Positions 7,483-63,625 are shown, numbered from the stretch's first letter. The stretch is DNA of 64,000 bases from a virus (IMGVR_UViG_3300031998_000005); one strand, 5' to 3'. A program made the numbers and translations. Notes: generated by a model not told the origin, from the letters alone.

Positions 7483-7509
7483 AGGTCGGTTGTTCTTTTG
7501 GTTCAAGTT

Positions 7510-7883: not shown

Positions 7884-8297
7884 TTAAAGAGTCGGGTTGT
7901 TGAGTATTCTACGGGTGGCATAATAGAGCGACTTACCTACATCAGCGGTATCATCAAATATATCCGTTTGGAAGAAATGGTTGATGTCGCCATACATAAA
8001 GTCCTGGTCGGGAGCATAACGGATGTCATAGCAACCTTCAATATCCCCATCGTAAACAACGACAACCAAGATTGTGTCCTCGTTCTCGTCACAGACATAG
8101 AACCCATACACTTGCTTGCCACCCATAAACTTGCTGAAATCTTCAAGACTGAAACCACGCTTGGTAGCGATAGGTTCAAATTCTTTCATCAGTCTATCAC
8201 GGAACTCCCGCTTGTTGCGGTTCATTTCAATCCGTCTATCTTCGGCAACCTTGGCAAGACTTTCCTTTTTCTTCTGCATAGAGCAAACGAAACTCAT
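7884..8297 (-). CDS. putative internal head (cargo) protein
   Basis: Leader MSFVCSMQKKKESL. Confidence 0.6.
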   Translation of the reverse strand: MSFVCSMQKKKESLAKVAEDRRIEMNRNKREFRDRLMKEFEPIATKRGFSLEDFSKFMGGKQVYGFYVCDENEDTILVVVVYDGDIEGCYDIRYAPDQDFMYGDINHFFQTDIFDDTADVGKSLYYATRRILNNPTL

Positions 8298-13790: not shown

Positions 13791-13795
13791 ACAGA

Positions 13796-14038: not shown

Positions 14039-14056
14039 AGTAATGGTCCTCACGGA

Positions 14057-17009: not shown

Positions 17010-17357
17010 TTATTGATGATAGGATAATTCGGAAATAGATTTGATAGATGCTTTCTCGGCATCGGTCAGTGGACCGTGTGTAGCGGTAAACTTGCGGAGC
17101 ATACCCGAAAGTTCCGTCTTCATCTGCTTAATGCTAGTTTCACGTTCGTTCGGGATTTCAATTTCCTGCCAATACAGCATATCTTTCACGACAAAGTTGC
17201 ACCCACACGCCACGTCGGGAAATTCCAATTTATTATCGGGGTGGACAATAACCACTAGGGTAATTCTGCGATTATCCCCCGCATCAAAAACCGCAAGCAA
17301 CTTGCGATTAGTCGGACACTGCTTTCTTTGGTCATTCCAAGAATCTTTTGTAATCAT
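17010..17357 (-). CDS. hypothetical phage protein
   Basis: 115 aa ORF, AAGGA SD. Confidence 0.6.
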   Translation of the reverse strand: MITKDSWNDQRKQCPTNRKLLAVFDAGDNRRITLVVIVHPDNKLEFPDVACGCNFVVKDMLYWQEIEIPNERETSIKQMKTELSGMLRKFTATHGPLTDAEKASIKSISELSYHQ

Positions 17358-17368
17358 CGGATAGTTCC

Positions 17369-17527
17369 TTACTTGTAAAAGAGTTCTTCAATTTCGTCAT
17401 ACACTTCCTGCTTGGAATGCTCGGCAATCCAATTAGGGGTGTTGTCTATCAAATCACGAACCAAGCAAGACCGCTCGTAAACGTGGTCATCTATTTCAAG
17501 AGTGCCATCTTTGCAATTAAGCGTCAT
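17369..17527 (-). CDS. small hypothetical protein
   Basis: Start moved to MTLNCK after a GGAGG SD. Confidence 0.55.
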   Translation of the reverse strand: MTLNCKDGTLEIDDHVYERSCLVRDLIDNTPNWIAEHSKQEVYDEIEELFYK

Positions 17528-18185
17528 CGTAATTTCCTCCAAAGTAATCGGCAAGTTCCTGCCATCGGGCAAGCCACTTGTTCCACAAGTCCATCTTATC
17601 GGCAATCATCTTATCGGCTTCTTCTACACGCCTAACAAGAGCCTTACTAGACTGCTCCCAATATGCCAACTTCTTCTTGCAATACTTCACCAAAGAAAGG
17701 CAACGCCTGTAATTGCTGTGGAGCAGGCGGTTTTCGTAAGCCATAGATTTCTTCAAGAAATAATCATACCGCTCCATATAATACTTGCGGTCGGTGTCAA
17801 AGCACAGGCGATGGGCATCCAACTCGCAGATGGCTTCATCCACTTTCTGTCGGGGATAGTATTCATCGTTAGGGTCTAATCCCCCAACGATATTGGAAGC
17901 AAACACGGGCTTCAAGTCTTCAAACTTGTAGTGCCATTCCTCATTGACAGCGGGAGCCTTGTCGTTATACTTGTCCATAAGCCCGTGGATGACATCGGAC
18001 ATCTTGCCCCAGGTGGTATAGTCATCGTTAGGAATGACTACCCAATAATCTCCGCACTCCCGCACATCGCTGTCGCCTTCAGCCATAATAGCCTCTGCGA
18101 TTTCACAGCGTTGGTCGTGGCTGTGATGGGTGACTTTGAGCAGGAACGAGTAGTTCTCTCGGTCTTCTTTGATAATGCTAATCAT
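17517..18185 (-). CDS. hypothetical phage protein
   Basis: 222 aa ORF with a helical C-terminus. Confidence 0.65.
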   Translation of the reverse strand: MISIIKEDRENYSFLLKVTHHSHDQRCEIAEAIMAEGDSDVRECGDYWVVIPNDDYTTWGKMSDVIHGLMDKYNDKAPAVNEEWHYKFEDLKPVFASNIVGGLDPNDEYYPRQKVDEAICELDAHRLCFDTDRKYYMERYDYFLKKSMAYENRLLHSNYRRCLSLVKYCKKKLAYWEQSSKALVRRVEEADKMIADKMDLWNKWLARWQELADYFGGNYDDA

Positions 18186-18208
18186 CGGGATTACTCGGTT
18201 TTCGTAGT

Positions 18209-18466
18209 TTAGTCAATTTGCAGATTTACTTGAAGGTATGCCACCTTATAGTCATCCACATACACCTTATGATTTCTATTAGGACCCTTCGGGGACTCCT
18301 GCACATACAACCCCGTAATAGGGACTACTTCCGTAGTATGGTCATATTGAGAAAATGCCCCGTCTGTTCTGCTAGTCGTATAATTGACCTGGCACTGAAT
18401 AATGTCAGTATCGGACAAGGGTTCAAGCACTTTAAGCAAGTCTGCTTTAGTCATAATGGGTTTCAT
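18209..18466 (-). CDS. hypothetical early protein
   Basis: First gene after the promoter at 18501-18529. Confidence 0.65.
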   Translation of the reverse strand: MKPIMTKADLLKVLEPLSDTDIIQCQVNYTTSRTDGAFSQYDHTTEVVPITGLYVQESPKGPNRNHKVYVDDYKVAYLQVNLQID

Positions 18467-18500
18467 TCAATTATCCTCGGTTTTAAGTGGTTCTGCATTA

Positions 18501-18529
18501 AATATAACAAAATACCTAGCCGTTGTCAA
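18501..18529 (-). promoter_or_regulatory. early promoter TTGACA-N17-TATATT with a perfect AAAATACCTA-N11-TAGGTATTTT dyad
   Basis: aatata 18501-18506, tgtcaa 18524-18529. Confidence 0.85.
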
Positions 18530-18760
18530 TAGGTATTTTAATTTTAACCTTCTCCCGATGCTCCCGATAGACACGGGCTGCGTAGCCCGCACGGAAACCA
18601 AGAGCGAAAAACAGGCAAAACATAATACACCAGGCGAAATTAGGGAGTTCCATCTATATCCGTAAAAATGGGGGGTTTAAGTGGCAAATATGCAGTTTTT
18701 CTGCATATCTTGGGGTTATTTTGGCAAAAATCGGGTGTTTAGCACAAAAATAGGTGGCTT

Positions 18761-22226: not shown

Positions 22227-23054
22227 CTAGCCAAGCGACTTTTCCAAGTCGGCAAGCACCTTCGCAGCCTTGCCCATATCTATGTAGTCATCGCCAACAA
22301 CAGCCGAACGTTTCTGCACAAGTTTATTAACGATGTTTGAAATAGAAGCGGATGTCTTGCTCGTAGAGTCGTGGTCAATCATAACGCTAAATGCGTCACC
22401 ATTATACATACGAGGACGGAACTCCACCTTTGCAGACATCTTCACGGCATTACGGATGACATCTTCAAGTTCATCTATAAATACTCCAAGGTCATCGTCA
22501 AACTTATGCTGTTTCGGAGAAACCGACCTTTCCCTATCTACGGACTTCTTCAAATTATCCACAGGCTCACGGATGTCATCGCTAATGTAATCGTTAAAGT
22601 CCTTCTGCCATTCGGGACACTTCTCAAATGCCTGTTTAATAAGATACAGAACTCGTCCGCAGAACGGCTCAACCTCACCAACCGAACGACCCAACTTTAC
22701 CTGGTCGGGGTTAATATCGGCATACTTACAAAGAACATCTACGAACTCCTGTGCCTTCTTCTTATCCTTGAACCAAAACTTGTATTGTTCCTTTCCTGTG
22801 CCATCGGACCATTCCACACCATACTTACCAACAATATAAGGCACGATAAATTTCTTGAACTTCCAAGAGTGGTCGTTATTCTTGTTGTAGTTCAAGATGT
22901 CCTGTGCCTTGCCATAACGACCTCTATTGTCATTATACGGGTCACGGGCTGCGACAGCATTGTAGTTCACAACATCGTCAATACCTTCGGCACGGCTACC
23001 ACGCCTGCAAAGACTTTCAATCTTCTTCTGCATTGAACAACGAAACTTGGTCAT
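22227..23054 (-). CDS. putative internal head (cargo) protein
   Basis: Leader MTKFRCSMQKKIESL; has its own -35-less TATATT at 23097-23102 and its own terminator. Confidence 0.6.
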   Translation of the reverse strand: MTKFRCSMQKKIESLCRRGSRAEGIDDVVNYNAVAARDPYNDNRGRYGKAQDILNYNKNNDHSWKFKKFIVPYIVGKYGVEWSDGTGKEQYKFWFKDKKKAQEFVDVLCKYADINPDQVKLGRSVGEVEPFCGRVLYLIKQAFEKCPEWQKDFNDYISDDIREPVDNLKKSVDRERSVSPKQHKFDDDLGVFIDELEDVIRNAVKMSAKVEFRPRMYNGDAFSVMIDHDSTSKTSASISNIVNKLVQKRSAVVGDDYIDMGKAAKVLADLEKSLG

Positions 23055-45019: not shown

Positions 45020-45140
45020 TGTATAACCTCATTTGAGTATTAAATGTGGTTGTCCATATACTATATAGCAACATACTATCAAAAACGAAAAGTTGCCGAT
45101 TTCTCGGCAACCATTCGCAACCAATCCCCTAGCACGAACA

Positions 45141-49149: not shown

Positions 49150-49842
49150 TTATGCGATATTGCCATCTTCAGTGAACTCGTATTCACGCCATTCAATTTC
49201 GTCCTTGATGTCATCATCGGACACTTCGTAGAACCAATCATAGCCGTCATCTCCAAACTGACTATCTATGTGACCCATAACATCACGAGCATAGGTTTCA
49301 AGTTCGTTCAACAAACCTATTTCGTCATCAGTCAGTTCCACGTCATAGTCGGGAACGACCTCAAGGCGGTCAGCCAACGAGTAGCCGTAACGATTGTTAT
49401 ACGCAAGGTCAATATCATAAATATCTGCCTTGTCGCACACAGCCTTGATAGCGTCCTTGTCCGAAAGGGGCTTGATGTTAGAACCCGTAAGCGGGTATTT
49501 AGACACGTCCGCATTCAGCAAATCATCTACACGCAATTTGCCGTAAGTATTAAACCCATCGCCCTGGGAATAGGACAGGGAATACTGCACTTTCAAATCG
49601 GAGTTCGGGAACAATTCATCAAGACACGTTACACACGAATCCGAGAACGTGGAGTAATCATCGCTACGAATACGCAGGATTTCTTCTTTCACTGCGTCCT
49701 TTGCCGTTTTCTTGGCTTCATCGGAAAGTTCATCGTAGGAATAAACGTCATAACTAGGCGGTTGAATCGTCCGCTTTTCGGAACGCTTATTCTTGGCGAG
49801 GCTTTCAATCTTCTTGTTCATAGAACACTTAAACTTTTTCAT
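49150..49842 (-). CDS. putative cargo protein
   Basis: Leader MKKFKCSMNKKIESL...KRSE; YDELSDEAK...SQGDG...EYEFTEDG motifs. Confidence 0.6.
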   Translation of the reverse strand: MKKFKCSMNKKIESLAKNKRSEKRTIQPPSYDVYSYDELSDEAKKTAKDAVKEEILRIRSDDYSTFSDSCVTCLDELFPNSDLKVQYSLSYSQGDGFNTYGKLRVDDLLNADVSKYPLTGSNIKPLSDKDAIKAVCDKADIYDIDLAYNNRYGYSLADRLEVVPDYDVELTDDEIGLLNELETYARDVMGHIDSQFGDDGYDWFYEVSDDDIKDEIEWREYEFTEDGNIA

Positions 49843-49857: not shown

Positions 49858-50292
49858 TTAAAGTTTAGACGCTGCCAAAGATACAGCCCCCGCAAGAGAA
49901 ACCATATCTTCCTTTCGTTCGTCCATAGCCTTCAGCAACTGACGGAGCGATGGAACACCCGCCAAACCGCTGTTACGATACATTTCCGCTTCGTCTTCGG
50001 GGTCAAAACCATCGGCATATTCTACAAGTTCGTCTGCCATCGCAGAAATGGTTTCAGCAAAATCTTCCCCTGCGTTCCACACCACAGAAAACGTAGCGTC
50101 ACCACCTGTAGAATAATCATAACCCGAAATCTCGGCACAGATTTCACCAGGACGATTTTCGGAAACATAAGCGGATTCAAACATCGTCCCCGCCTTTCCC
50201 ATCACACCTTCAAGCCAATCTCGGATAGCGTCATAATCGCTATAGGCTTCGTTCTTCTTGGATTCACGAACCTTAATCTTCATCTTGGACAT
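49858..50292 (-). CDS. putative cargo protein
   Basis: Leader MSKMKIKVRESKKNE. Confidence 0.6.
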   Translation of the reverse strand: MSKMKIKVRESKKNEAYSDYDAIRDWLEGVMGKAGTMFESAYVSENRPGEICAEISGYDYSTGGDATFSVVWNAGEDFAETISAMADELVEYADGFDPEDEAEMYRNSGLAGVPSLRQLLKAMDERKEDMVSLAGAVSLAASKL

Positions 50293-50304
50293 AATATATT
50301 CTCC

Positions 50305-53300
50305 TTACACAAAGTAGAACAGGTTGGAACTACGGGCAGTAATCACATACTTTTTGCCCTCGTTATCACGGAGCAGGGCACCGTTCATTCCGTAAGTTCC
50401 ACGGCTCACACCGATGGTTTCAATGCCCTTCTTGCGGAGTGCCTTGGCTTCTTCATCGGAAATGGTCGTGATGTCTTCGGCTTGACCAAAACGAGCCATA
50501 TCTTTCAGTTCCTTCTGCTTCAAGGTAAGGCTCTCGGACTTCTTGGATTCATTTCTAGGGTCATACAAAATACTTGCACGATTAAGACTAGAAATAGGCA
50601 AACTAAATTCCTTACCTGTATCTACGGACTGACCCACAAATGTGCGAGGTTTTAGTTCACGAATATACTGCTTTACCCCATCAAGACTAATCATCATACC
50701 TACAACGAATTTAGTCTTGCCGTGCTTAAAATAGTCACCATCGCTATAACAATCCTTACAGAAAGCCCGATTACCCTCTCCCCAAATAGGGTCATCTGTG
50801 GGATTGCCACAGATAGAACAGATTACAGTTGCTTTCTCGGACTTCTTGGCTTCTTCCTTGCATTCGGGCAGATAGTCGCCTTGGAAAGTCTTGGTAGTAG
50901 CATAATACCACTTGCCGTCCTTATCGCCAAAGTAAGTCTGTCCAACAAGATTGCCGTTAATATCCATAGCATAGCCCGCAGTGTGGAGCCACTGCTTATT
51001 ACGAATATCGTTGAATTGTGCAGGCGTAGTAATCTCAACTGCGTCCAACGTCTTCATCTTGTTAATAAGGTCGGCACGGCTACGATACATACGATTACCC
51101 AACTTCTTCGGGGGCAAACCTTCGGTCTGCTTGCTTTCGTCATTAGCCTTGATGTCCTTGATTACAGACGGTCCATACTTTTGCAAGTAGGCGTGATAAT
51201 CGTCCATCGTCACGATTTCTTCGTAGGCACGACTATCCTTGTCAATAACATTAGTCACGGCTGTAGAAGCCCAACGCTTTAACTTTTCGGGCAGTCTGTC
51301 TTCAAACCAATCGTAGGCGACTTGCCACATAAAGTCAGTGTCTTCCTTGTCAATAGCGTCATCCTTGCCGTAGCCATAATACTTTTTCTTGGCTTCGGTC
51401 TGCTTGCTTTCGTTAGCAGGGTGTTCCGCAATCAACTTTTTAAGGTCGGCAGTAAGGTCATCCCACAGGTCTGTCAGTTTGTCTGCGGTGTAAGCCTTAT
51501 CCCACTCACGGATAACGCCAGGACCGATACCATCTTCATCAAAATCAAGAATATACGAAGCATTATCCGTAGTGCCATCATCGCAAATACCAAGAGCCAC
51601 AAGGACACCTGTGCCATCGGGCAACCACGTATAACATTCAACGTAATCGCTACTACCATTATCGCTATCCAAAGCCTCCGTATCATCAAGACCCAAATCA
51701 GCAAGAGTATTGCACAGGTCGCTGTATGCTTCGGAACCTTCTATTTCGGGGTCGCAATAGAAATAGTTTTTAAGTGTGTCGTGTCCGTATTGGTTCTTGG
51801 CTTCGGACGGCTTACCATCTGCGAAAACCTTGCGGTCAAGATAGAAACCCGCATCGCTAGGGTCATCTGCAAAAGAAGCGGAGTCGTTAGCCATTATCCA
51901 ATCGTTCAAAAGCCCCGCAGCCTTACTCACGCTACGTTCTTCATCGTAGTAAGTCGCCAACATATTGACGAAATGATTACCTTCTTTATCAGTAACAACC
52001 TTGCCACGCTTGGCAAGCCACTTGCTAAAATTCTTGATGTAGCGTTTACGCAATAACGCCATCACGTCCTTTTCAAACTTATCCGCTTCGGGGTCGGCAT
52101 CGTAGTTCACGAAATCGCCAACCTTGAACGTAGCGTCCGCTTCGTTCTTCTTGGTCTTATCGTCCTTACAATCCTTGCCCTTACAGCCCTTGTCATCGTC
52201 ATTACCCTCGGACTTACCGCCTTCGGAGTAAATGTCAAAATGCGGACTGCCGTTCACGCCATCCATAATAGCAACGTAGTCACCATCATCACTAGAACCT
52301 GTCAGTTCGCCATTGGCGAGTTTCTTGACAAGTTTTACGGCTTTATCGCCACCCTTATGGTCAGTAGTCAGCACTATAAGCATTTTAGGTTCACGACAAA
52401 GACCAAGCGGGATTTCTTCGCCATCAATAGACACATAGTCCTGGTCAAAGCAAGAGTCTACAAAGTCATTCAGCCTTTGCAAGTATTCGTCCATAGCATC
52501 GGGGTCTTCATCCCAATTCTCGCCATACTCGTCAATAATATCCTGCAACCTGTCTGCGGGGAGGTCAAGTTGCTCACAGGCTTCATCGTGGGTCATAACC
52601 TCGGCACCACGCCAAATATCTTCGTAGGCTTCGGACTTATCGCCCTTGGCGTAGTAGTCCATCTTGTTATCAAAGGCTGCGTATCGTGCTTTCTTGCGAT
52701 AGTCGGCAGTTGTCTGCTTGTCGCTAGACGAAGCCCAATAGATGTCAAACGAGTCGCCCACAATGTCGCCATTCGGCTTTTCCTGTTCGCCTGCCATAAC
52801 AATCACTTGCACAACGCCATCATCATCCTTGTAGGAATCAGCAAGTTCTTTCGCAGCATTGATAGCGTCATCTTCGTCATAGAAAGTTTTAGCCGCCTGC
52901 ATATCGTCCAAGCCTTCCTCATCGCCATCGGCATCAATGCGAGTAAGGTCCAGGGTGAAGATGTCCTTGTTGCCCTCGGCTTCGGACTTCTTGCTTTCAT
53001 CCTTTGCGTTAAGACCAAATGTTGAAGATATGCCCAAATCGTCATCAACGCAAAGGTCAAACCACTTCTTGCCAAAGGCTTTAAGGGCATCACGGTCATT
53101 GCCGTAAACATATACGGCTTTACCACCTGGAGGCAGTCGGGGGTCTTCACCCAAGTTGCGGGCGTATTCTGCACCCTTCGCAGCGTCTTCGTTAGACGTG
53201 AACACGATGACGAAGTAATCGGAGCCTTCGGCTTTATTAGACTCGGATTTACCACCAAGGACAGCATAAATCTTACTAACAAGTTCATCATCAAAATCAG

Positions 53301-54102
53301 CCCAATTAGTGCTTTCTCCCGTTTCGTCTTGAAACTCCACGGTGCCATCGCCCCAAACATTGACTTGTCCATAAGTGTGTCCGTCGTATTCAATCGGGTC
53401 AATCATAACTGCATCGGACGAGTCCCATTCAACTTCAATGCCGTCCTTATCACGATAGCAAGAGTTTTCGTCATCCCAAGTCCAACCCGCAGCCTTGGCA
53501 GCGTAGTGGTCCATATTATACTTGGCATAATCGTCAATAGACAGACCCTCGGACTTTTTGGATTCGTTAATAATAATACCCATAGCCTTAATATCGGGGT
53601 CATTCGCCATTTCTCTATGCAAATCAAACAAAGGCTTATACTTGTCTAACAGTTCTTTAGTAAACACGGAACCCATCGTAGAATACCCTGTATCGCCAAG
53701 CATAATCTCACCAAACTTGCCAAGAGAGTTTGAGCGTATTCGCAACTTACCACCAAGTTCTTTTGCTCTCTTACGATAAGCGTCCAACGTGGCTTCGGAC
53801 TTTTTGGATTCGTTAGACATAGACCAGAACCCGAAGTCCGCTCCATCGCCTTCGCTTGCACCAAAGTAGCAACCGTCGGGAGCGATTTCATTGAGCAAGT
53901 CAGTGAGTTCATCCACGACCCATCCCATAGTTTCATCGTCAAGGTTCTTCCAATCTTCAACTTCGGGATTTTCCTTGATATATTTGTCATACTTATCCTT
54001 GCCGTAGGTCTTCAAGACACCAAGGAATTTCGGGATAAGGTCATCGGATTTGAGAGTTCCACTAGACACGGAACGGTCACGCAAGTCTTCAATGTTTGCC
54101 AT
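50305..54102 (-). CDS. 1265-aa putative cargo polyprotein with about 12 ESKKSE-type linkers
   Basis: Unrelated domains of roughly 70-140 aa separated by NESKKSE, DESKKSE, ESKQTE, KSE or KKNE. Confidence 0.65.
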   Translation of the reverse strand: MANIEDLRDRSVSSGTLKSDDLIPKFLGVLKTYGKDKYDKYIKENPEVEDWKNLDDETMGWVVDELTDLLNEIAPDGCYFGASEGDGADFGFWSMSNESKKSEATLDAYRKRAKELGGKLRIRSNSLGKFGEIMLGDTGYSTMGSVFTKELLDKYKPLFDLHREMANDPDIKAMGIIINESKKSEGLSIDDYAKYNMDHYAAKAAGWTWDDENSCYRDKDGIEVEWDSSDAVMIDPIEYDGHTYGQVNVWGDGTVEFQDETGESTNWADFDDELVSKIYAVLGGKSESNKAEGSDYFVIVFTSNEDAAKGAEYARNLGEDPRLPPGGKAVYVYGNDRDALKAFGKKWFDLCVDDDLGISSTFGLNAKDESKKSEAEGNKDIFTLDLTRIDADGDEEGLDDMQAAKTFYDEDDAINAAKELADSYKDDDGVVQVIVMAGEQEKPNGDIVGDSFDIYWASSSDKQTTADYRKKARYAAFDNKMDYYAKGDKSEAYEDIWRGAEVMTHDEACEQLDLPADRLQDIIDEYGENWDEDPDAMDEYLQRLNDFVDSCFDQDYVSIDGEEIPLGLCREPKMLIVLTTDHKGGDKAVKLVKKLANGELTGSSDDGDYVAIMDGVNGSPHFDIYSEGGKSEGNDDDKGCKGKDCKDDKTKKNEADATFKVGDFVNYDADPEADKFEKDVMALLRKRYIKNFSKWLAKRGKVVTDKEGNHFVNMLATYYDEERSVSKAAGLLNDWIMANDSASFADDPSDAGFYLDRKVFADGKPSEAKNQYGHDTLKNYFYCDPEIEGSEAYSDLCNTLADLGLDDTEALDSDNGSSDYVECYTWLPDGTGVLVALGICDDGTTDNASYILDFDEDGIGPGVIREWDKAYTADKLTDLWDDLTADLKKLIAEHPANESKQTEAKKKYYGYGKDDAIDKEDTDFMWQVAYDWFEDRLPEKLKRWASTAVTNVIDKDSRAYEEIVTMDDYHAYLQKYGPSVIKDIKANDESKQTEGLPPKKLGNRMYRSRADLINKMKTLDAVEITTPAQFNDIRNKQWLHTAGYAMDINGNLVGQTYFGDKDGKWYYATTKTFQGDYLPECKEEAKKSEKATVICSICGNPTDDPIWGEGNRAFCKDCYSDGDYFKHGKTKFVVGMMISLDGVKQYIRELKPRTFVGQSVDTGKEFSLPISSLNRASILYDPRNESKKSESLTLKQKELKDMARFGQAEDITTISDEEAKALRKKGIETIGVSRGTYGMNGALLRDNEGKKYVITARSSNLFYFV

Positions 54103-54569: not shown

Positions 54570-54605
54570 AAAAAAGCACCCCCGCCATAAGGCAGGGGCA
54601 CTTTT
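54570..54605 (-). terminator. intrinsic terminator after the major capsid gene
   Basis: GTGCCCCTGCC-TTAT-GGCGGGGGTGC plus U6. Confidence 0.75.
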
Positions 54606-54628
54606 CAAAGGTTCACACCTTTTACGGA

Positions 54629-56275
54629 TTAGCCGTTGCTTCCGCTACCGCTACCACCATTCGGGGTGGAGGTAAGGAACACATTGACATCCGCAGCGGG
54701 GTCGGCATCCTTGGTGATGACGATACGCTGAACGAACTCGGCAACCACAGGTTCAATCGCCTTCCAAGAAGCGATAGCACGCTGCTGTTGGAACGGGTTT
54801 TCGGCAACCTGCATAGTGTCGGTGAGGAACACCGGCATATAGGTAGCACAGACCACAGGTGCTTCAAACGGAGAGTTATCACTGCTGTAAGCACAGATAA
54901 CTTCGTTCGGAGCAACGATGGCGTTGGAACGGATAACCGTGATGCCTTCGTTTTCAAGAGTGCCATACACGTGCGGGCCAACGAGGTTGGTCTGCGGTGC
55001 AAGACGGAAACCAGGCAGAGAAGCGATATACTGACAAGCGACATAGCCCGCCACAATCTTGTTGGCGTGACCCTTACCCGCACGGCTACCGATGGCGGCA
55101 GATGCAGCCTGGATAGTGTAAAGGAAGGACTGACGATGTTCAAATTCGCTGATACCAGGAGTCTTGTTGAGATTCCAAGTAATCGGCTTCCACTTGTTAG
55201 CACACTTGACGTATGCGGCAAGAATCTTCTCGCTTTCAGCCATCGCCATATGACCCGTAAGGTCAGCGAGAACTTCATCACTTGCAGCCTTGCCGAAACG
55301 CTTGTTGAACTGGAAGGACTTGAACGTGCCCATCATTTCCTTAAGACCGATGATTTCAGCAGAAACCACCTTGGAGTCAAGGGAGTATTCAATAGCAGGA
55401 ACGTCCGGTGCCTTTTCAAAGTCCACATCATAAGTCACGCCACCCTGGTAGCCACTCGGAATAGTGAGAACGAGGTCACCACCATCCTGTGCAGCAGTCA
55501 CAGCAACCTTGCCGTAGAAAGTCGGCAACTGACCAGGACCGCCACAGACACCAACGATGTCTTCAACCTTGCCATCCTTGTCCACAAGACGCACGTTAAT
55601 CGGCATATTCCAACGGAGATTGCCGACACCATACTTGATGGTAGCCTTGCCGTCTGCAGCGATGACAAACTGACGTTCGGACATATAGCCCGTCGGAGAA
55701 GCCTGCCAACCCTTGAGAGCGTTGAACGTGATAGCGTCAAAGTTCTTGGCTGCGAGAGTGGCAGCGTCCAAATCGCCTTCGCCACTATCAGCAGGGCGAC
55801 CACGAGTGTCCAACCACTTCTTCCAAGCACCCGCAAAGGTCTTGTCGCCTTCAAACTTGCCGTCAGCGTCCATCCAGCGGTCTTCGGGGAGAGTCGGCAG
55901 ACCATTCTGTGCGGTCAGCGGATAGCCGTGGGTAAAGGTCTTCTTAAAGTAAATCAGACCCTGGGATTCATCAAGCGTCTGCACACTAGCCAACTGCGGA
56001 GCGATGGAGAGTGCGTAAGTGGCACTGATAAGGTCAAGAGCCACACGGGGGAGAACGCCAAGGCTAGAAGCCGAGGAGTTTTCGTTCACGTAGGATTCGT
56101 AACGCTTATAGTTGTCCATCTGCTGACCCAAGTTGTAGCGGGCGGTAGCAGAAAGAGTGCCCTTAAAGGACGGGGATTTAGCAAGTGCTTCAAACTGCTT
56201 GCTATAACGAGCATCGTAGGATTCTACGAGGCGGTTGAATTTCTGGTTAGACATTTCTTCAACGGAAGTCTTCAT
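54629..56275 (-). CDS. major capsid protein (T4 gp23-like)
   Basis: 548 aa; IAPQLASVQTLDESQGLIYF, GKGHANKIVAG, VYGTL, VCATYMPV...ENPFQQQRAIASW motifs of the gp23 family; follows the scaffold gene. Confidence 0.88.
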   Translation of the reverse strand: MKTSVEEMSNQKFNRLVESYDARYSKQFEALAKSPSFKGTLSATARYNLGQQMDNYKRYESYVNENSSASSLGVLPRVALDLISATYALSIAPQLASVQTLDESQGLIYFKKTFTHGYPLTAQNGLPTLPEDRWMDADGKFEGDKTFAGAWKKWLDTRGRPADSGEGDLDAATLAAKNFDAITFNALKGWQASPTGYMSERQFVIAADGKATIKYGVGNLRWNMPINVRLVDKDGKVEDIVGVCGGPGQLPTFYGKVAVTAAQDGGDLVLTIPSGYQGGVTYDVDFEKAPDVPAIEYSLDSKVVSAEIIGLKEMMGTFKSFQFNKRFGKAASDEVLADLTGHMAMAESEKILAAYVKCANKWKPITWNLNKTPGISEFEHRQSFLYTIQAASAAIGSRAGKGHANKIVAGYVACQYIASLPGFRLAPQTNLVGPHVYGTLENEGITVIRSNAIVAPNEVICAYSSDNSPFEAPVVCATYMPVFLTDTMQVAENPFQQQRAIASWKAIEPVVAEFVQRIVITKDADPAADVNVFLTSTPNGGSGSGSNG

Positions 56276-56293: not shown

Positions 56294-56860
56294 TTAGGCT
56301 TTCTTGCCAATTTTGGAACGGAATTTCGCACGGGCTTCGTTGCAAGCCTTTTTACGGGCTTCGGCAGAACCCTGCTTGGATTCAGCCTTCTTCGCAGCAC
56401 GGCGGGCTTCAAGACGCTTGCGGAACGCTTCTGCACGAGCCTCATTACGGGCGGGAGCAGTAGCCTTGTTAGCAGAACGTCTGGCTTCAAGACGCTTGCG
56501 GAATGCTTCGCGGCGGGCAGCCTTGCGGGATTCTTCTGCGTCCTTGGGTTCTTCGCTACCTTCAACAGACGCAGAACCGAGAACTTCCTCTTCTTCCACA
56601 TCTTCCTTGGAGTTAGTGAGAACAGCGACAGTCACCGAGTTTTCGTTTTCCGGGTCGGGAGAAACGACAACCTGGATGTCCTTGTCTTCATCAGCGAAAA
56701 CGACTTCCGTTTCAGCAGCGTCCAACTTAACGTCGCCAACTTCAACGATGTTGTCATCTTCACGGAGTTTCTTTTCGGCTCTACGGGCTTCAAGACGCTT
56801 GCGGAAAGCAAGAGTGCGAGCCTCGTTGCGAGCAGAGATAGAGCGTTTGTGAGTAACCAT
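56294..56860 (-). CDS. putative prohead scaffold or core protein
   Basis: Start moved to MVTHKR after AAGGAG; three AFRKRLEARR repeats; immediately upstream of the MCP gene. Confidence 0.6.
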   Translation of the reverse strand: MVTHKRSISARNEARTLAFRKRLEARRAEKKLREDDNIVEVGDVKLDAAETEVVFADEDKDIQVVVSPDPENENSVTVAVLTNSKEDVEEEEVLGSASVEGSEEPKDAEESRKAARREAFRKRLEARRSANKATAPARNEARAEAFRKRLEARRAAKKAESKQGSAEARKKACNEARAKFRSKIGKKA

Positions 56861-57200: not shown

Positions 57201-58607
57201 TTAATCCTCTTCGGACCAAATTTTACGAGCGTATTCAGTTGCTTCCGCAGAACCAAAAGGAGAGCCATCCAAAGGACTACCACTCAACACGCCATCCACC
57301 CATTCTGCAAATTCATCGGCAGTTCCAGAATAACCACCAAAGCCATCCAATTCTCGCATAATGGCATACTTACCAACGATTTCGGCGGCATCAGCATCGT
57401 TAATCACAAAGTCATCGTTAGTATGCGACAAGATTTCATCACATACTGTATCTAATGCGGTTTCTGCGTTAGATACAACAAAGTGCGAAAGGCTACTCTC
57501 GTTCTTCTTGGAAACACTCTCTTTCTTCTTCTGCATAGAACAGATGTTGGACTTGCTTTCAAAACTACCCCAACCCGTTGCAGGAGTCAGTCCACTAGGA
57601 ACATCAAAGCCCTTTTCCTTAACAATCTTAATAAGTTCGGGCATATCTTGGGGGCATTCTGCCATCGCCAACCGCAGGGTATTATTAACCTGGGCTTGAT
57701 TACGAGGATTCCAATTTTTGAACATCGGGTGCATTTCTTGTAGTTTGGCAAGGCTTTCCTTCTTCTTCTGCATAGAACAGGTGTGCTTCTTGGCTTCCTT
57801 CTTCTTGGATTCATCCACATAAACAGCATTATACGGACCCATTTCCTTACCCGTAGCACCACGATAAATCATAGACAAGTCATCACGGAAACCAAATCCA
57901 GGATGCTTAAAGCCACTACCGTCTTCAGCCGTTGCACGATGACGACCGTTCTTCCAAGAATAGTTCATAATGAACTTACCGTTAGAAGTCACATCCACGG
58001 AGTCATTATCCTTCATCGTAATCTTTATCCCCATTGTGGGATATGCCTTACTGTAATAGTCCTCGTAGTCCTTCCAAAACTGCGGATTACGCCAACAAGA
58101 CATCTTACCAAAATCGGGATAGTTCTGGTGAATGTCATACAACATAAACATCTTTTCGTTTTTCTTGGCTTCCTTCTTCTTGGACTCCATCAAATCCAAA
58201 GCAGTAGTCCCTTCCTCGTTCGGCTCGCCATACTTCTTCCAAATGGCTTGGGCTTCATCGTTATACCACTTGACATCAAAATTGTCATCGGTATAAACAA
58301 CCTTGCCAACCGCCATATCGGTGTCCCAAACTTCGCCCGACTTTTCATCATAGGGCATATAGAAGTCGGAGTAGTCCATCACCATCAGATTGCGATGCTT
58401 ATAGCCAATCTTGGAACAAAGGGTGTAGCCGTCCTGCTGATACAGGTCTTCTTCTTCATCGTAGCCCTCGCCCCAACCCATAACGAAACACAACTCGGTC
58501 CCGTCATCAGTTGTTTCAAGAGTCTTCCACCACACCACCGAACCCGATGTAGTAAGGGTCTTGATAGCGGTGTTAAAGTCCTTTCCTGTAATCTTCTTCA
58601 GTGCCAT
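57201..58607 (-). CDS. putative cargo polyprotein (about 4 modules)
   Basis: Linkers MESKKKEAKKNE, DESKKKEAKKHTCSMQKKKES, FESKSNICSMQKKKESVSKKNE. Confidence 0.6.
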   Translation of the reverse strand: MALKKITGKDFNTAIKTLTTSGSVVWWKTLETTDDGTELCFVMGWGEGYDEEEDLYQQDGYTLCSKIGYKHRNLMVMDYSDFYMPYDEKSGEVWDTDMAVGKVVYTDDNFDVKWYNDEAQAIWKKYGEPNEEGTTALDLMESKKKEAKKNEKMFMLYDIHQNYPDFGKMSCWRNPQFWKDYEDYYSKAYPTMGIKITMKDNDSVDVTSNGKFIMNYSWKNGRHRATAEDGSGFKHPGFGFRDDLSMIYRGATGKEMGPYNAVYVDESKKKEAKKHTCSMQKKKESLAKLQEMHPMFKNWNPRNQAQVNNTLRLAMAECPQDMPELIKIVKEKGFDVPSGLTPATGWGSFESKSNICSMQKKKESVSKKNESSLSHFVVSNAETALDTVCDEILSHTNDDFVINDADAAEIVGKYAIMRELDGFGGYSGTADEFAEWVDGVLSGSPLDGSPFGSAEATEYARKIWSEED

Positions 58608-58626: not shown

Positions 58627-59298
58627 TTATTCGGCTTCTACGTTAATTTCCTTATATCCGTCCTTGAACGAATAAGTTTCAAACTGCTTTTTGACTTCTG
58701 CCAAGAACTTATCCGCATTCGCCTGCGTCATCTGTTCTTCGGTCAATTTCATAACCACATCCAGGTCATCTTCGGGATGGCGACCATAGGTATAGTCAAA
58801 ACTGCGACTAATACGCCCGTGAAGTGTATGTTCACGCCCAAAGTTGTAAAGCCAAATCTCGGCATAAGCGAAAATCTCGCAACCTTCGCTCCACCACTGA
58901 TTTTCAAAGTCGTAGAAGTCATCGGAACGGAGGTCGCATTCCACGCCTTCCTTCTCGCATTGTTCCTTGTAGGCATCTTCGCACTGCTCCTGCAAGTAAT
59001 CGTAGTCCTTGTCAATCTTGTCATCTGCGTAGCCTTGACCGACAATGTTGTAGGAAGTGGTCATCCAAGTCTTTTTAACACCGCCATCGTTGTGGGAGAT
59101 ATATCCGCTGTAATCATCACGCTCAATATCTTCCACACCATCACCTAGTTCATACCAGGCATCACACATACCGCCACAAGACTGATTCACGTCATAGTTT
59201 TCAAGGATTTCGGTAGCCCCGTCCTTGATAAAACTATCGTAGAACTTCGCCCCTGCGGAACCGCTAGACTCGTGAACTCGGATTTTCATTTTAGACAT
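58627..59298 (-). CDS. acidic putative cargo protein
   Basis: Leader MSKMKIRVHESS. Confidence 0.6.
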   Translation of the reverse strand: MSKMKIRVHESSGSAGAKFYDSFIKDGATEILENYDVNQSCGGMCDAWYELGDGVEDIERDDYSGYISHNDGGVKKTWMTTSYNIVGQGYADDKIDKDYDYLQEQCEDAYKEQCEKEGVECDLRSDDFYDFENQWWSEGCEIFAYAEIWLYNFGREHTLHGRISRSFDYTYGRHPEDDLDVVMKLTEEQMTQANADKFLAEVKKQFETYSFKDGYKEINVEAE

Positions 59299-59342: not shown

Positions 59343-60323
59343 TTATTTTTCAGTGAACTTGGACAGGTCGGCAGAACAAATCTCGTAAGTGCCCAAGTTG
59401 TAGTGGACTTTATCGCCCGAAGGCTTGACAATGCCCAACTCGGCAAGTTTCTGCAACAGCCTGCCGTCCATACTAGAACTTGCAAAAAATTCATTAGTGT
59501 CTAACGAATACCCAGGCAAGCACACAGAAACATCCGTATAAATCTCGCCATCGTCACACTCGGCAATCAAGGCAATACCATTCGTCATAGCGTATTGTTC
59601 CAAGCGGACCGTGAGATTATTTTCTTCCCCATAGGCTTTATACGTGAAATACTCCGTCCGCTTGCCGATAGGCAACTTACTCTTGCGAGCCTCGGCTACG
59701 CCTTCTTCAACCTTGTATTTGTTATACATTTCAATGGTCCACTGCTCGGCTTCTTCAACCGATGTGGTTTCCTTGATTTCACTACCATTAAAGTTTTCTG
59801 CAACATTGAACGTGAAAACACTTGCACTCAAACACACTTCCGCATCGGGAGAATACCAAGCGTCTACGACACCTGGAATGTCCGCAAGGTCGTTAATGTC
59901 GGACAACGAGCCAAACAATTCCCAATCCTTGCCGTTGCTATCCGCAGCAATCTGCTGCAAGGCATCACGGATAGATTCAACATCCACAAAAGCCACAAGT
60001 GCAGGAGCGGACGGCAAAACCGCCTTCTTGTATTCCTCCTGCATAACCTTTTCAACTTCTTCCCTGCTCGGACGGTCCTTAAAGGCAACCATAAGGTAAT
60101 TATCCTTTACGGTAGCCCTATCCACGTCAAGGGATATGTTTTCAATATCCCAAGCCACATCGGGGTCAAAATCCTCGGTGCCCTTGAATACCGCAAGTGC
60201 GTGTGCGGTATAACAAGACGGCAAGAAATCCCCAATTTCGTTCTTCAAGGACTGGGGAAGAAACAGGCTTTCGGCTTCCTGTTTCTTGCTCTCGTGCAAA
60301 CGGATAGACAATTTCTTGGACAT
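59343..60323 (-). CDS. putative cargo protein; C-terminal module resembles DUF4313
   Basis: Start moved to MSKKLSIRLHESKKQE; YAMTNGIALIAECDDGEIYTDVSVCLP...GIVKPSG (DUF match recalled from memory, unverified). Confidence 0.55.
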   Translation of the reverse strand: MSKKLSIRLHESKKQEAESLFLPQSLKNEIGDFLPSCYTAHALAVFKGTEDFDPDVAWDIENISLDVDRATVKDNYLMVAFKDRPSREEVEKVMQEEYKKAVLPSAPALVAFVDVESIRDALQQIAADSNGKDWELFGSLSDINDLADIPGVVDAWYSPDAEVCLSASVFTFNVAENFNGSEIKETTSVEEAEQWTIEMYNKYKVEEGVAEARKSKLPIGKRTEYFTYKAYGEENNLTVRLEQYAMTNGIALIAECDDGEIYTDVSVCLPGYSLDTNEFFASSSMDGRLLQKLAELGIVKPSGDKVHYNLGTYEICSADLSKFTEK

Positions 60324-60338: not shown

Positions 60339-60614
60339 TTACTTATATTTTTCCAACTGCTGAAAGACATAACTAAACGCATCGTTAATGCGTTCCTGCT
60401 TTCGGGCGAGATTTTCCGCAATTTCAGTAGCAGTGCCATACGCAGAATCGGCAGCACCATCTTGAATGTCTATAATACTCCCCCAAAGGGATTCTATGGG
60501 AGAGCGACTACCGATGATAGCAGAAATGTCTTTAAGTTCATCCTGCAAATTTTCAAACTCGCCCTGCAAGGACTCGTTGCTTTCGTGCAAACGGATAGAC
60601 AACTTTCTAGGCAT
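60339..60614 (-). CDS. putative cargo or core protein
   Basis: Leader MPRKLSIRLHESNES; directly after the protease gene. Confidence 0.6.
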   Translation of the reverse strand: MPRKLSIRLHESNESLQGEFENLQDELKDISAIIGSRSPIESLWGSIIDIQDGAADSAYGTATEIAENLARKQERINDAFSYVFQQLEKYK

Positions 60615-60617
60615 ACC

Positions 60618-61655
60618 TTAACCTCCAAGGATGTAAGAAATCAGGCTGCCATCATTGGCTTCGTCCTTCTTGATAGCCTTGGCTTCCAAGACCTTGAACG
60701 TCTGCGGTGCAGGCTGTTCACGCTCAATGCTTTCGTAAGTAGCACCCGCCTTGCGACGCTCCTTAACGTAATCTTCATTAAGCCCGTTCTTGTTGGCGAA
60801 TTTCAACTCACGGATAGTTTCTTCGGACATCTTGATTTCTTCCTGCAAGTCTTCCACGAACTTGACGATAGACTGCTTGATGTCCTCGGTCACCTCGGTA
60901 AAGTCTTCAAACTTATACGTGTCGTTAGAGCCGTCATCGCAGTTGGACATTTCACAGCCGTTCTTGTCAAGGCTTTCAACGATGTAGGTGCTTCCGTCAA
61001 GTTCAACGGGTGCCCCAAGTTCGTTAGCCAAGGAAAGCAGGCTTTCAGCAACACGTTCGTTCACGGATTCTTCAAGGGCTTCCTTCTTCTTGGATTCCGA
61101 AATAACCTTGGGCTGTGCGTCAAGGAAACCAGGGTCTTGAACAAAGTCAAAGCGTTCAAGTTTGTAAGTCTTGGGGTCAAGAATGTCGTTGCCATCTTCG
61201 TCCTTGCCTTCGTAGTCGCCATCGGCACGGGAACTGACATACATCGTAGTTCCTGCACGGAGAATGGTGTAAAGGGTCTTACCCATATCCGTATTGTAGA
61301 TGACCGATTCAGCAATGCCCGTCTTCCAATCAATGTTGCGGGTAATATGGGAGAACTTGCCCTCGGCAATATCTTCGTCAGTGATTTCGGCTTCGTGTCC
61401 GATACGACCGAACATCTGTCCGTTCTTGAGTTTGCGTTGCACATCTTCGTCTTGACCCGCAACTTCCCAAAGTTCTTCGGTGTAAAGACGATGATTACGG
61501 CTTACCTTGCCAGGGCAGAAATGCTGACCCTTGACAATGGCGAGAATAGTGCCGCCGCTCTTGGCAACCTCGGATTGAGCGGACTCGTCCACACGGGCAA
61601 TATCGTCCACGAACTCGCACTTAAACGGGATATAATCTTCTGCAATTTTCTGCAT
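60618..61655 (-). CDS. prohead core protease (T4 gp21-like)
   Basis: SRNHRLY, GRIGH, FSH, TDMGKTL, YVSSRADG, FDFVQDPGF motifs of the gp21 family. Confidence 0.88.
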   Translation of the reverse strand: MQKIAEDYIPFKCEFVDDIARVDESAQSEVAKSGGTILAIVKGQHFCPGKVSRNHRLYTEELWEVAGQDEDVQRKLKNGQMFGRIGHEAEITDEDIAEGKFSHITRNIDWKTGIAESVIYNTDMGKTLYTILRAGTTMYVSSRADGDYEGKDEDGNDILDPKTYKLERFDFVQDPGFLDAQPKVISESKKKEALEESVNERVAESLLSLANELGAPVELDGSTYIVESLDKNGCEMSNCDDGSNDTYKFEDFTEVTEDIKQSIVKFVEDLQEEIKMSEETIRELKFANKNGLNEDYVKERRKAGATYESIEREQPAPQTFKVLEAKAIKKDEANDGSLISYILGG

Positions 61656-61704: not shown

Positions 61705-62001
61705 TTATTCCTTGTAATCCATAATCTGCCTAATAAGGGCATCTGCCCATTCATCCATCGGGATTTCATCAAAAGACGAACCCCATACATCGGAGTAGAA
61801 CTCATTACTAGGTAAATCATTCATCACGTTGTTAATAAGTTTACCAAACGGACCGCTATTAAAAGAACCTAGACCTAGCATCAGTGTCCACCATCCCTCA
61901 CGTATTTTTTCAACGGCACGGATAAGGTCTTCTTTAGATTTTGGTTTTTCAAAATCTTCGTTCTGCTTGGTTTCGTGAACCTTGATAGTCATTCTACCCA
62001 T
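61705..62001 (-). CDS. putative cargo protein
   Basis: Leader MGRMTIKVHETKQNE. Confidence 0.6.
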   Translation of the reverse strand: MGRMTIKVHETKQNEDFEKPKSKEDLIRAVEKIREGWWTLMLGLGSFNSGPFGKLINNVMNDLPSNEFYSDVWGSSFDEIPMDEWADALIRQIMDYKE

Positions 62002-62005: not shown

Positions 62006-63625
62006 TTATTCTCCTAAAAATTCAATGAGATTTTCATACGGGGTTTCACCGAAATCTTCGTAGTTCAAGTAACTATCGTTAATATCATCCTTATCCCATA
62101 CAGCACGGATATTGTCTAACAACTTGCGGAGCAGTTTCTTATCATATCCTGCAAGGAACGCATTATAGAAATCAATCGCTGTAGGAATAAAGTCGGGGTC
62201 GTGTTCAAGCAACAGGTTAAGTGCTTCTTCATTATTCGTTTCGCCCACGACTCGTTTCCAATCTTCCACAAAATTCAAATCCCGTTCACTATCCCAACTA
62301 TAACGATAGGGATAACTACCATCCTTATCTGCGGGAGCATCTGTGTATTCGTCCCAACCCGCATAAAGCCACGGTTTGTCGGGTGTCGGAGCAGTTCCCG
62401 CAAAAAGTTCCTTCATAGTATCTACATCATTATTGAGAATAGCCCAACCCATAGGGTCGTGGTCATCCACGTAGAACCCATCAGCGGAACTTTCGTGTGT
62501 AACAATATCACCGCTACCATAGACAGAAGCAAGGTCAGCACCGTCGCCACGGGCTTCGGAGTGTTTAGCACGGGGCTTACGAGTAGCCCGCTTTACATTT
62601 CTTACAAAGTCATCCCACGAATCCCCTGGGTGCTTACGAACGCCTGCTGAAATACCTTTAAGAACAATATCCAAATCGTCCAAAGTATCACAAGTCATAT
62701 GCTGATGACCATACATAATGAAAGACACTTCATAATGCGTTTGAATATCACTAGAACCACCAAGACCCGTGAAAGTTTCAGTGTAGATAATGACTTCGCC
62801 ATAGGGAGAATTATAAACTATCTTCTGCTTTTTCGGGTCAATCTTGGCATCGGGGCTGTATTTCTGTGCGACTTTAAGAGCGTCCTGCAACGCCTTACGG
62901 TCCTTGGCATACATACTGCGATAAGGTGCTTGGTCGCCTGTGCGTTCAAGTTCATCGTCATCAAAGACGGATTCGGTAGGCTTTTCGTTCTTACGTCCGA
63001 CCACGCCTGTCGGTGCGACCCCAAGCGATGATGCAGATGCACCATCTTCGTTCTTAAAACCCTTGGACTTCTTCCAAACCGCATATTCGGACGGGTCATC
63101 AATCTTTGCAATAACCCCGTGGAAACCATCAGTTACCATATTGAACCAATCCTTCACAATCAGTTCAATCGCATCGTAAGCCATATCAAACGGCTCGTCC
63201 TGCAAGCCTTGATTTACAACCGCCACAATGGGTTCTGCACCAACTACGTGAATATCAAGAAGATGGGAGTCCGTGCCCTTACTATAAACGGAGTGGCAAG
63301 CGTCTTCATCCTTACGATAATCCGACTTGACATAGAAATACTTACCGCTCGGATTGTCAAACCCACGGATAAACAATCCCTTAATCACAGCGTTCAAGTC
63401 ATCCCATTGGTTAGACAAATCCACATCGTCCAAGACAGATTCCGAAATCTTCGTAGCAGAACGGATAGGAGCGGTCACACTTGCAAGGTCGCCAAAGTCG
63501 CCATAAGTGCGGGGGAGCAAGGATTCATAACGAGCCTGGGCTTCGTCCTTGTCCTTAAAGGCTTCAACTTTCTTCTTGCCGAAGAAATCCGTATAGGAAA
63601 TAGTCCAATTAAGTCCTTTTGTCAT
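62006..63625 (-). CDS. putative cargo polyprotein
   Basis: 539 aa; candidate linkers KISES, KNED, RKNEKPTES, KHSEA. Confidence 0.5.
   Translation of the reverse strand: MTKGLNWTISYTDFFGKKKVEAFKDKDEAQARYESLLPRTYGDFGDLASVTAPIRSATKISESVLDDVDLSNQWDDLNAVIKGLFIRGFDNPSGKYFYVKSDYRKDEDACHSVYSKGTDSHLLDIHVVGAEPIVAVVNQGLQDEPFDMAYDAIELIVKDWFNMVTDGFHGVIAKIDDPSEYAVWKKSKGFKNEDGASASSLGVAPTGVVGRKNEKPTESVFDDDELERTGDQAPYRSMYAKDRKALQDALKVAQKYSPDAKIDPKKQKIVYNSPYGEVIIYTETFTGLGGSSDIQTHYEVSFIMYGHQHMTCDTLDDLDIVLKGISAGVRKHPGDSWDDFVRNVKRATRKPRAKHSEARGDGADLASVYGSGDIVTHESSADGFYVDDHDPMGWAILNNDVDTMKELFAGTAPTPDKPWLYAGWDEYTDAPADKDGSYPYRYSWDSERDLNFVEDWKRVVGETNNEEALNLLLEHDPDFIPTAIDFYNAFLAGYDKKLLRKLLDNIRAVWDKDDINDSYLNYEDFGETPYENLIEFLGE

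Follow-up and report, generated by a model that had tools for sequence, protein, structure and literature searches.

A 1265-residue modular array in the head gene module of a T4-type rumen/gut phage: a candidate capsid-cargo polyprotein of the prohead protease

The stretch of DNA analysed here (the window, 64,000 nucleotides) corresponds to bases 146370-210369, read on the reverse strand, of the 215,686-bp genome (46.8% G+C) of IMGVR_UViG_3300031998_000005, an uncultured 216-kb T4-type phage from rumen/gut. Within its head gene module, downstream of the capsid gene, an open reading frame (ORF) at 50305..54102 on the minus strand encodes P0001, a protein of 1265 amino acids (aa); translation confirmed exactly these ORF limits, as they had been given in an initial annotation made from the sequence. 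That P0001 is a beads-on-a-string array of independent modules, as this annotation had proposed, is well supported by the shuffled arrays of its homologs, by stand-alone homologs of single modules, by the structural models of its joints and by the exchange of modules at these joints. We further consider it reasonably probable that P0001 is a capsid-cargo polyprotein which the head protease cuts into about a dozen pieces. Overall the initial interpretation is partly supported, with corrections concerning a constant C-terminal module, which is set apart from the variable ones, and the scissile bond.

The joints split P0001 into 13 modules of 22-136 aa each. Seven joints are strict E[SA]K[KQ]xE linkers ending at aa 103, 185, 374, 903, 994, 1089 and 1190, with [ND]ESK[KQ][ST]E starting at aa 98, 180, 369, 898, 989 and 1185 and EAKKSE at aa 1084. 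One further linker contains SESNKAE (aa 286-292), and the remaining four are short K-x-E joints, namely GDKSE (487-491), GGKSE (628-632), KKNE (651-654) and GKPSE (763-767). The initial annotation had listed about 12 linkers, and its positions agree with these to within ~10 nt. A chance origin is excluded, because 20,000 shuffles of P0001 gave a mean of 0.01 and a maximum of 2 E[SA]K[KQ].E motifs against the seven found; in a crude set of 384 ORFs, 19 motifs were present where 0.32 were expected. Scanning the whole genome in six frames returned 22 matches, 21 of them within forward-strand ORFs of at least 102 codons, and these 21 are confined to two clusters, one at genome positions 101-109 kb and the other, in the head module, at 148-164 kb. 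The consensus from 495 distinct contexts reads E, S (82%), K, K (86%), S (72%), E; the residue after the second Glu is S, A or G in 72% of the contexts, and the upstream positions are variable. In linker 12, the alignment residues K98, K99 and E101 are at least 90% conserved. Since the linker codons in this genome differ synonymously (Ser TCC/AGC, Lys AAA/AAG, Glu GAA/GAG), the linker is selected as a peptide and not as DNA, and for the same reason a DNA repeat artefact was rejected. The short joints are likewise taken as genuine module boundaries and not as chance occurrences of K-x-E, because the ends of BLAST alignments cluster at them and the DNA homology to a related contig (L008, below) breaks there; the match of homologs P0139 and P0246 to P0001, for instance, begins at aa 766.

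The modules between these joints behave as exchangeable units. Searches of metagenomic data gave 240 homologs of 64 to 1518 aa, and nearly all of them are arrays interrupted by the same motif. When 120 long homologs were cut at the motif and the pieces clustered, 174 families resulted, whose order and number are shuffled between arrays. An exhaustive profile-free search with aa 104-903 of P0001 recovered stand-alone proteins of overall 74-130 aa, each of which matches a single module over its full extent and ends at the joints (Table 1). The initial annotation had named stand-alone homologs as a check for each module; they were found for modules 1, 2, 3, 5, 6 and 8, and modules 4, 7 and 9-12 were seen inside arrays only. 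The short proteins that match module 13 may be fragments derived from short contigs. P0169/P0170 carry, directly behind an N-terminal leader and ESKKSE, the module which in P0001 comes after linker 10.

The relative L008 shows the exchange at the level of DNA. Its capsid protein and protease are 99.1% and 98.6% identical to those of the present phage, and its polyprotein of 1049 aa carries a different module set. The blocks of DNA homology (90-98% identity) are bounded at aa 104, 291, 493, 630, 670, 770 and 900 of P0001, that is at the joints or a few residues away from them, with the exception of aa 670; the block of aa 670-770 belongs in L008 to a different gene, which encodes a leader-bearing protein of 202 aa upstream of the protease. 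Such breaks at the joints and the move of one module to another gene are what would be expected if the linker were mainly a DNA-level recombination joint with a secondary resemblance to a protease site, and the modules of the neighbouring 489-aa gene, which recur in the polyproteins of relatives, point in the same direction. As the main role of the linker this is very unlikely, given that the linker DNA is not fixed in this genome, that the weak joints GDKSE, GGKSE and GKPSE provide just 12-15 nt and that the motif in the protease and in the leaders would be left unexplained. Recombination at the joints is compatible with, and not exclusive of, a cargo polyprotein: the linkers are also the sites of cassette exchange between phages and between cargo genes, and the turnover of the cargo set is therefore very fast.

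Structural models were calculated with AlphaFold2 from checked alignments for aa 186-500 and aa 1090-1265, which include four joints; two multi-module MAFFT alignments, A1 and A2, were discarded because of misplaced fragment rows (76 of 114 and 51 of 95, respectively). In the first model, domains at aa 196-285 and 375-485 were predicted with a local confidence (predicted local distance difference test, pLDDT) of 93-98, and the segments aa 286-296 and 486-500 have block means of 46 and 42-61, respectively. From aa 340 to ~370 the pLDDT is below 50, with a block mean of 52 over aa 366-375, and the next confident domain begins at about aa 375. The second model comprises a zinc ribbon, a beta-barrel and the C-terminal module at pLDDT 86-90, and falls below 50 at model residues 93-102, which correspond to aa 1182-1191 and linker 12 (block mean 41). 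All four joints are thus located within or beside segments of low confidence that separate folded domains, as the initial annotation had expected of such models. Low confidence in hydrophilic segments would be expected of any spacer, however, and P0001 could instead be an uncut multidomain 'polyvalent' protein which acts as a single long chain, whether packaged or not, and in which E-S-K-K-x-E is a conserved, flexible and charged spacer without any role in proteolysis. In the virion gene contexts of phages, polyvalent proteins of 2-15 unrelated domains are documented, some of which, for example the N4 vRNAP, are packaged unprocessed (PMC5512222). We regard an uncut protein as unlikely, since a spacer has no need of a near-invariant hexapeptide kept despite synonymous codon change, would not be expected to recur at the end of the protease domain and at the leader ends of single-domain neighbours, and since the modules also exist as small proteins on their own.

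In composition the modules differ from each other much as the initial annotation had described them. Nine of the 13 are acidic (pI 4.1-5.1), six of these with a net charge of -12 to -25, and three are basic. The zinc ribbon CSIC...CKDC (aa 1094-1127) matches Pfam Zn_ribbon_2 with an E-value of 0.033, below the cut-off, and its region forms beta hairpins in the AlphaFold2 model. The N-terminus of P0001, MANIEDLRDRSV..., is the start of a module present in 114 homologs.

The last module stands apart from all others, and the view that the whole protein is cargo was not upheld: only the part upstream of the final 75 aa is variable. This C-terminal module was found in 192 of the collected proteins with about 50 nearly invariant positions, occurs in one copy in this genome and in one copy in each of four related loci scanned, and in these five loci always terminates the array located after the capsid gene. 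Foldseek against the PDB, VIA-align (no rows) and the ESM Atlas (no usable match) yielded no fold match for this module. Because P0001 has no N-terminal leader, this module is proposed, as a guess, to enter or bind the prohead and to bring the variable modules with it.

A cognate S77 protease is encoded in the same head module. P0002 matches annotated head maturation proteases with 39-42% identity in tblastn and Pfam Peptidase_S77 (PF03420) with an E-value of 2.5e-4 (21 bits, under the cut-off of 27 bits); H87, H103, S141 and S142, which include the catalytic His and Ser, are invariant among 36 homologs. As the initial annotation had noticed, the protease carries a stretch of the linker type, ISESKKKEALEES, directly after FDFVQDPGF at the end of its catalytic domain; the post-domain context reads FDFVQDPGFLDAQPKVISESKKKE/A (here and below, the slash marks a candidate bond), and among the first 30 of the closest homologs the motif is found at this place in about 25. 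The proteases of giant phages cleave themselves C-terminal to the catalytic domain, and in head proteins they cut several X-x-Glu sites (PMC10052503). From these sequence features the processing of P0001 by P0002 is judged probable. Two bonds within the motif are candidates for the scissile one: the 36 protease homologs have the first Glu (E187) as the sole invariant residue of the motif, with Ser behind it (S188, at least 90% conserved), and in the linkers a small residue follows the second Glu. T4 gp21 cleaves according to the rule hydrophobic (L/I)-x-E. The protease and the leaders would fit a hydrophobic-x-Glu/Ser site and the internal joints K-x-Glu before a small residue, and both Glu bonds may be cut. 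In distant relatives the leaders end with ...KTNE/A, ...KKNE/A and ...KKYE/A, which fits a K-x-E preference. When the protease domain was predicted in complex with a linker segment of 38 aa, the score was 0.00, which was counted neither for nor against cleavage.

Leaders of this kind are frequent in the genome. At least 14 genes begin with MSKMKIKVHE or a close variant, which is also found on shorter arrays such as P0169, and the ESKKxE motif together with the last Glu of the leader ends the leaders of three neighbours of P0001, those of 144, 326 and 98 aa (Table 1). Leader-bearing genes also lie far from the head module, at 5738-7869 and 13524-14836 on the minus strand (MSNNLKIKVHE, MSNNLKIKLHE, MANNLKIRVHE and MSKLTIKSRS), so the leader is used genome-wide. 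At genome positions 100179-109093, ~37-46 kb before the window start in gene direction, about ten genes with a MSKMKIKVHE-type leader are found, and this block holds five ESK[KQ]xE motifs over three ORFs, including an array of 591 aa with three. A second recurring peptide, CSM[QN]KK[KI]ES, occurs at 49801-49827, 57753-57779, 57516-57542, 23013-23039 and 8259-8285 (minus strand throughout). Three genes, 49150..49842, 22227..23054 and 7884..8297, carry it close to their N-terminus; it is also found twice within the array of 468 aa, and opens genes in relatives (L001, MKKCSMQKKIESLGKK; P0223, MGKCSMAKKIESLGKKNE). It may represent a second class of leader or linker.

According to the cargo-polyprotein reading, P0001 would be made late and would enter the prohead core via its constant C-terminal module or by the route of its leader-bearing neighbours. 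The S77 prohead protease would then cut the E-S-K-K-x-E and short K-x-E joints, with the bond behind the second Glu as the most likely site, and release about a dozen free proteins of 8-15 kDa. These would stay in the head with the DNA and be delivered with it, for a role in host takeover or counter-defence. The location of the gene in the head module, beside scaffold-like and capsid genes, and the strong acidity of most modules, as in scaffold and core proteins that leave when the DNA enters, would also suit a sacrificial filler of the prohead core or scaffold, which is cut and then, during DNA packaging, expelled or degraded like T4 gp22, gp67 and gp68, and so would play no part after injection; head propeptides of giant phages are similarly cut at several sites and cleared (PMC10052503). 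Nonetheless, a filler should have no need of ~170 folded module families that differ between phages with 99% identical capsid proteins, nor would its parts be expected as widespread stand-alone homologs in other genomes, and we consider it improbable. Compact domains of 8-15 kDa would also be hard to expel from a T4-type shell.

Searches for the function of the modules gave few leads. Pfam detected only zinc ribbons in P0001 and 52 diverse arrays, including Lar_restr_allev in one array, and no peptidase family in any of them. Searches of PHROGs, PADLOC and PDB sequences with the protein, its neighbours and the stand-alone homologs returned no informative family, and Foldseek against the PDB with both models gave nothing at E <= 0.001. 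In VIA-align, module 12 resembles SH3/Tudor/KOW-like barrels in a generic manner (Z 5-6).

Several observations weigh against a cargo polyprotein cut by this protease and are best considered together. Pfam, PADLOC and PDB sequence searches assigned none of the modules to a known family of effectors or anti-defence proteins, and the best structural lead is weak: module 5 aligns with the anti-toxin Dmd of T4 (rmsd, root-mean-square deviation, of 2.2 Å over 57/57 residues, VIA-align) at a Z of 5.4, below the trustworthy level. In contrast to the internal proteins of T4, which are basic and bind DNA, most of the modules are of strongly acidic character (net -12 to -25). P0001 is devoid of the ~10-aa N-terminal leader ending in Glu that its neighbours bear. 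In the protease, the second Glu of the motif is lost or changed in L001 (ISESKKKADDEE) and in several other homologs, and distant clades read VSESLNKGG in its place; since the second Glu is not kept in all proteases, the clean match between protease motif and linker is limited to the ~215-kb clade. Moreover, distant relatives with the same protease family (L004-L006) have a compact head module and no polyprotein.

A wider reading is plug-and-play, in which any small protein bracketed by E-S-K-K-x-E is loaded into the prohead by means of the constant C-terminal anchor or of an N-terminal leader, released by the head protease and injected along with the DNA as an immediate counter-defence or takeover factor, and the same linker serves as the joint of cassette exchange. 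We put it forward tentatively, as possible though rather doubtful. By way of conjecture, the small size, the acidity and the fast turnover of the modules fit counter-defence or takeover factors. If plug-and-play holds, near-identical capsids carry different injected arsenals. Injected pre-made proteins can act before any phage gene is expressed and would for this reason be a likely source of new anti-defence factors. The rule of leader, E-S-K-K-x-E joint and constant C-terminal module would, if true, allow such proteins to be found in metagenomes, and the 174 piece families from 120 arrays, nearly all without known fold or function, would provide a list of candidates for screening. The same rule might help to load foreign proteins into capsids, as has already been done with the targeting sequence of T4. 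The strategy would then be a general and so far undescribed one of large T4-type phages.

All genes of the T4-type head module lie on the minus strand. In their direction, a gene of 539 aa is followed by the 98-aa leader gene, the protease, three leader-bearing genes, the array of 468 aa, a scaffold-like gene, the capsid gene of the gp23 family, a terminator-like hairpin, a gene of 48 aa, the polyprotein gene, the 144-aa leader gene, a gene of 230 aa, the array of 489 aa, a conserved gene of 238 aa, the gene of 559 aa and a second strong terminator-like hairpin (45091-45112, minus strand). Because the two hairpins flank the genes from 48 aa to 559 aa, these are suggested to form a transcription unit separate from the capsid gene, probably a weaker one. 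A spurious ORF was ruled out for P0001, as the ORF is kept at the same locus after the capsid gene in L001, L002, L003 and L008, and also in one further contig known from gene calls only.

The protein of 326 aa matches DUF4313 with 25.6 bits against a Pfam cut-off of 27 bits, and the same family is weakly detected in its L002 counterpart. The L008 counterpart of the 98-aa gene contains a cargo module between the leader and an EAKQNE joint, ahead of a conserved body, and the gene follows the same grammar as P0001. In the 188-aa scaffold-like protein, the first two A[RC]NEAR repeats are followed by AFRKRLEARR, and each motif holds a basic-x-Glu/Ala site resembling the linkers. The 539-aa protein upstream of the protease (62006-63625, minus strand) has no family match and contains several K-x-E/small sites; its only similarity to a 197-aa gene present in L001 and L003 is a block of 178 aa (45% identity). 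The protein may be a further array and not the portal.

The relatives are metagenome contigs, 205-230 kb long, from rumen or gut. The closest isolated phages, Escherichia phage IME392, Ralstonia RP13, Acinetobacter Ab1-TPeters and Rhizobium RHph_TM30, share 26-42% identity in capsid protein and protease; isolated phages gave no DNA match, and tblastn matches for module 1 only. In the related 212-kb contig L001 an IS605 OrfB/TnpB (Cas12f-like) gene (178-1308) lies just upstream of the head module. The 191-kb relative L007, found via its protease, has a gene with a weak RVT_1 match (17292-18647) beside Phage_fiber_2 genes, and this reverse-transcriptase gene could be a diversity-generating retroelement near the tail fibres.

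Table 1 Features of P0001, its stand-alone homologs and the surrounding head module (window coordinates; aa numbers refer to the protein concerned)
Feature	Position	Strand	Remarks
P0001	50305..54102	-	modular array, candidate polyprotein: 12 variable modules and 1 constant C-terminal module
Linker 1 NESKKSE	53794..53814	-	aa 97-103; strict motif 53794-53811; L008 DNA homology ends here
Linker 2 NESKKSE	53548..53568	-	aa 179-185; strict motif 53548-53565; stand-alone P0322 and P0324 match the preceding module
Linker 3 GGKSESNKAE	53227..53256	-	aa 283-292; SESNKAE 53227-53247; pLDDT ~46; L008 block starts at aa 291
Linker 4 KDESKKSE	52981..53004	-	aa 367-374; strict motif 52981-52998; closes low-confidence stretch from aa 340
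Linker 5 GDKSE	52630..52644	-	aa 487-491; L008 block ends at aa 493; low pLDDT
Linker 6 GGKSE	52207..52221	-	aa 628-632; L008 block starts at aa 630; P0186 ends just before
Short spacer rich in Cys, Lys and Asp	52141..52206	-	aa 633-654, ends with KKNE; alignment ends cluster at aa 643-656
Linker 8 GKPSE	51802..51816	-	aa 763-767; L008 block aa 670-770 ends here
Linker 9 ANESKQTE	51394..51417	-	aa 896-903; strict motif 51394-51411; L008 block starts at aa 900
Linker 10 NDESKQTE	51121..51144	-	aa 987-994; strict motif 51121-51138
Linker 11 KEEAKKSE	50836..50859	-	aa 1082-1089; strict motif 50836-50853
Module 12	50557..50835	-	aa 1090-1182; Cys4 zinc ribbon and small SH3/Tudor-like beta-barrel
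Linker 12 RNESKKSE	50533..50556	-	aa 1183-1190; strict motif 50533-50550; pLDDT <50 at aa 1182-1191
Constant C-terminal module	50308..50532	-	aa 1191-1265, SLTLKQKELKDM...ITARSSNLFYFV; basic, pI 9.3
P0322, P0324			stand-alone, 74-78 aa; match P0001 aa 106-181
P0251, P0284			stand-alone, 94-105 aa; match aa 197-285; P0251 ends just before GGKSESNKAE
P0296, P0269			stand-alone, 105-118 aa; match aa 378-487; P0296 ends ...DYYAK, before GDKSE
P0186			stand-alone, 125 aa; matches aa 503-627; ends ...FDIYSE, before GGKSE
P0303			stand-alone, 110 aa; matches aa 670-749
T4-type prohead (head maturation) protease, P0002	60618..61655	-	345 aa; phrog_207, E 1.6e-21
ESKKKE after protease catalytic domain	61080..61097	-	aa 187-192; candidate self-cleavage site
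98-aa gene	61705..62001	-	leader MGRMTIKVHETKQNE/D
91-aa gene	60339..60614	-	leader MPRKLSIRLHES
326-aa gene	59343..60323	-	leader MSKKLSIRLHESKKQE/A
223-aa gene	58627..59298	-	leader MSKMKIRVHES
Second polyprotein-like gene, 468 aa	57201..58607	-	2x ESKKKE/AKK, 2x CSMQKKKES
Scaffold-like 188-aa gene	56294..56860	-	three A[RC]NEAR repeats; 188-aa gene at same place in L008
Major capsid protein, T4 gp23 family	54629..56275	-	Pfam Gp23 38.8 bits (cut-off 24.4 bits); phrog_138
Terminator-like hairpin	54571..54606	-	16-pair stem and T run; after capsid gene, upstream of polyprotein unit
144-aa gene	49858..50292	-	leader MSKMKIKVRESKKNE/A; directly downstream of polyprotein gene
Third polyprotein-like gene, 489 aa	47668..49137	-	ESKKNE, ESKKPE, KKSE x2, zinc ribbon
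Coiled-coil head-module gene, 559 aa	45141..46820	-	leader MSKMTIKNH...; NESKKSE/A at ~aa 83-88

A literature search, with most subscription journals outside its reach, found no published phage polyprotein processed by a prohead protease. A formal parallel is given by the polyproteins found in eukaryotic RNA viruses such as picornaviruses and potyviruses, where a single ORF encodes independently folding products separated by a uniform junction motif that matches a virus-encoded protease. P0001 has no homology with them; its protease is separate and serves capsid maturation, and its products would be accessory and built from hypervariable modules rather than constitute the core proteome.

The giant phages phiKZ, 201phi2-1 and SPN3US possess head proteases (gp175/gp245) that cut after Glu at X-x-E, some substrates at multiple sites, and package many internal proteins with their DNA (PMC10052503); in our case the cutting is predicted from the linkers. 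In those phages each gene yields one mature protein after repeated cutting has destroyed a long N-terminal propeptide, whereas the intervals between the sites of P0001 are folded modules that exist independently elsewhere. At the P3 position, phiKZ has S, A or G. SPN3US prefers A-x-E (PMC10052503), as opposed to K here.

For polyvalent proteins, delivery with the DNA and proteolytic release of the domains were proposed by Iyer, Burroughs, Anand, de Souza and Aravind (2017; PMC5512222), who explicitly likened them to RNA-virus polyproteins. P0001 shares with them the many unrelated domains, the virion-gene context and the mosaic among relatives (13 modules; 174 families). Unlike in polyvalent proteins, Pfam, PADLOC and searches of PDB sequences detected no recognisable enzymatic, DNA-binding or LPD domains here; the modules are very small, and the junction motif is uniform. 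Polyvalent proteins usually also embed a peptidase such as MPTase; P0001 has none, and its peptidase would be the separate, trans-acting enzyme of capsid maturation.

Close counterparts of the proposed cargo are the internal proteins of T4 (IPI, IPII, IPIII and Alt), diverse injected defence proteins, described as anti-restriction proteins, whose only common feature is a capsid-targeting sequence removed by gp21 (PMC3012670). As in T4, an S77 protease and a gp23-family capsid protein occur together with many unrelated small proteins that carry a ~10-aa N-terminal leader ending in Glu, and the cargo repertoire is diverse and fast-changing. Whereas each T4 cargo has a separate gene and one leader, up to 13 modules with internal sites are combined here in one ORF, which has a constant C-terminal module in place of the leader; the motif is E-S-K-K-x-E (K-x-E) instead of the gp21 site, and most modules are acidic. 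Should the joints be cut, about a dozen separate head-packaged proteins would come from a single gene, and the idea of the T4 internal proteins would be widened to a polyprotein.

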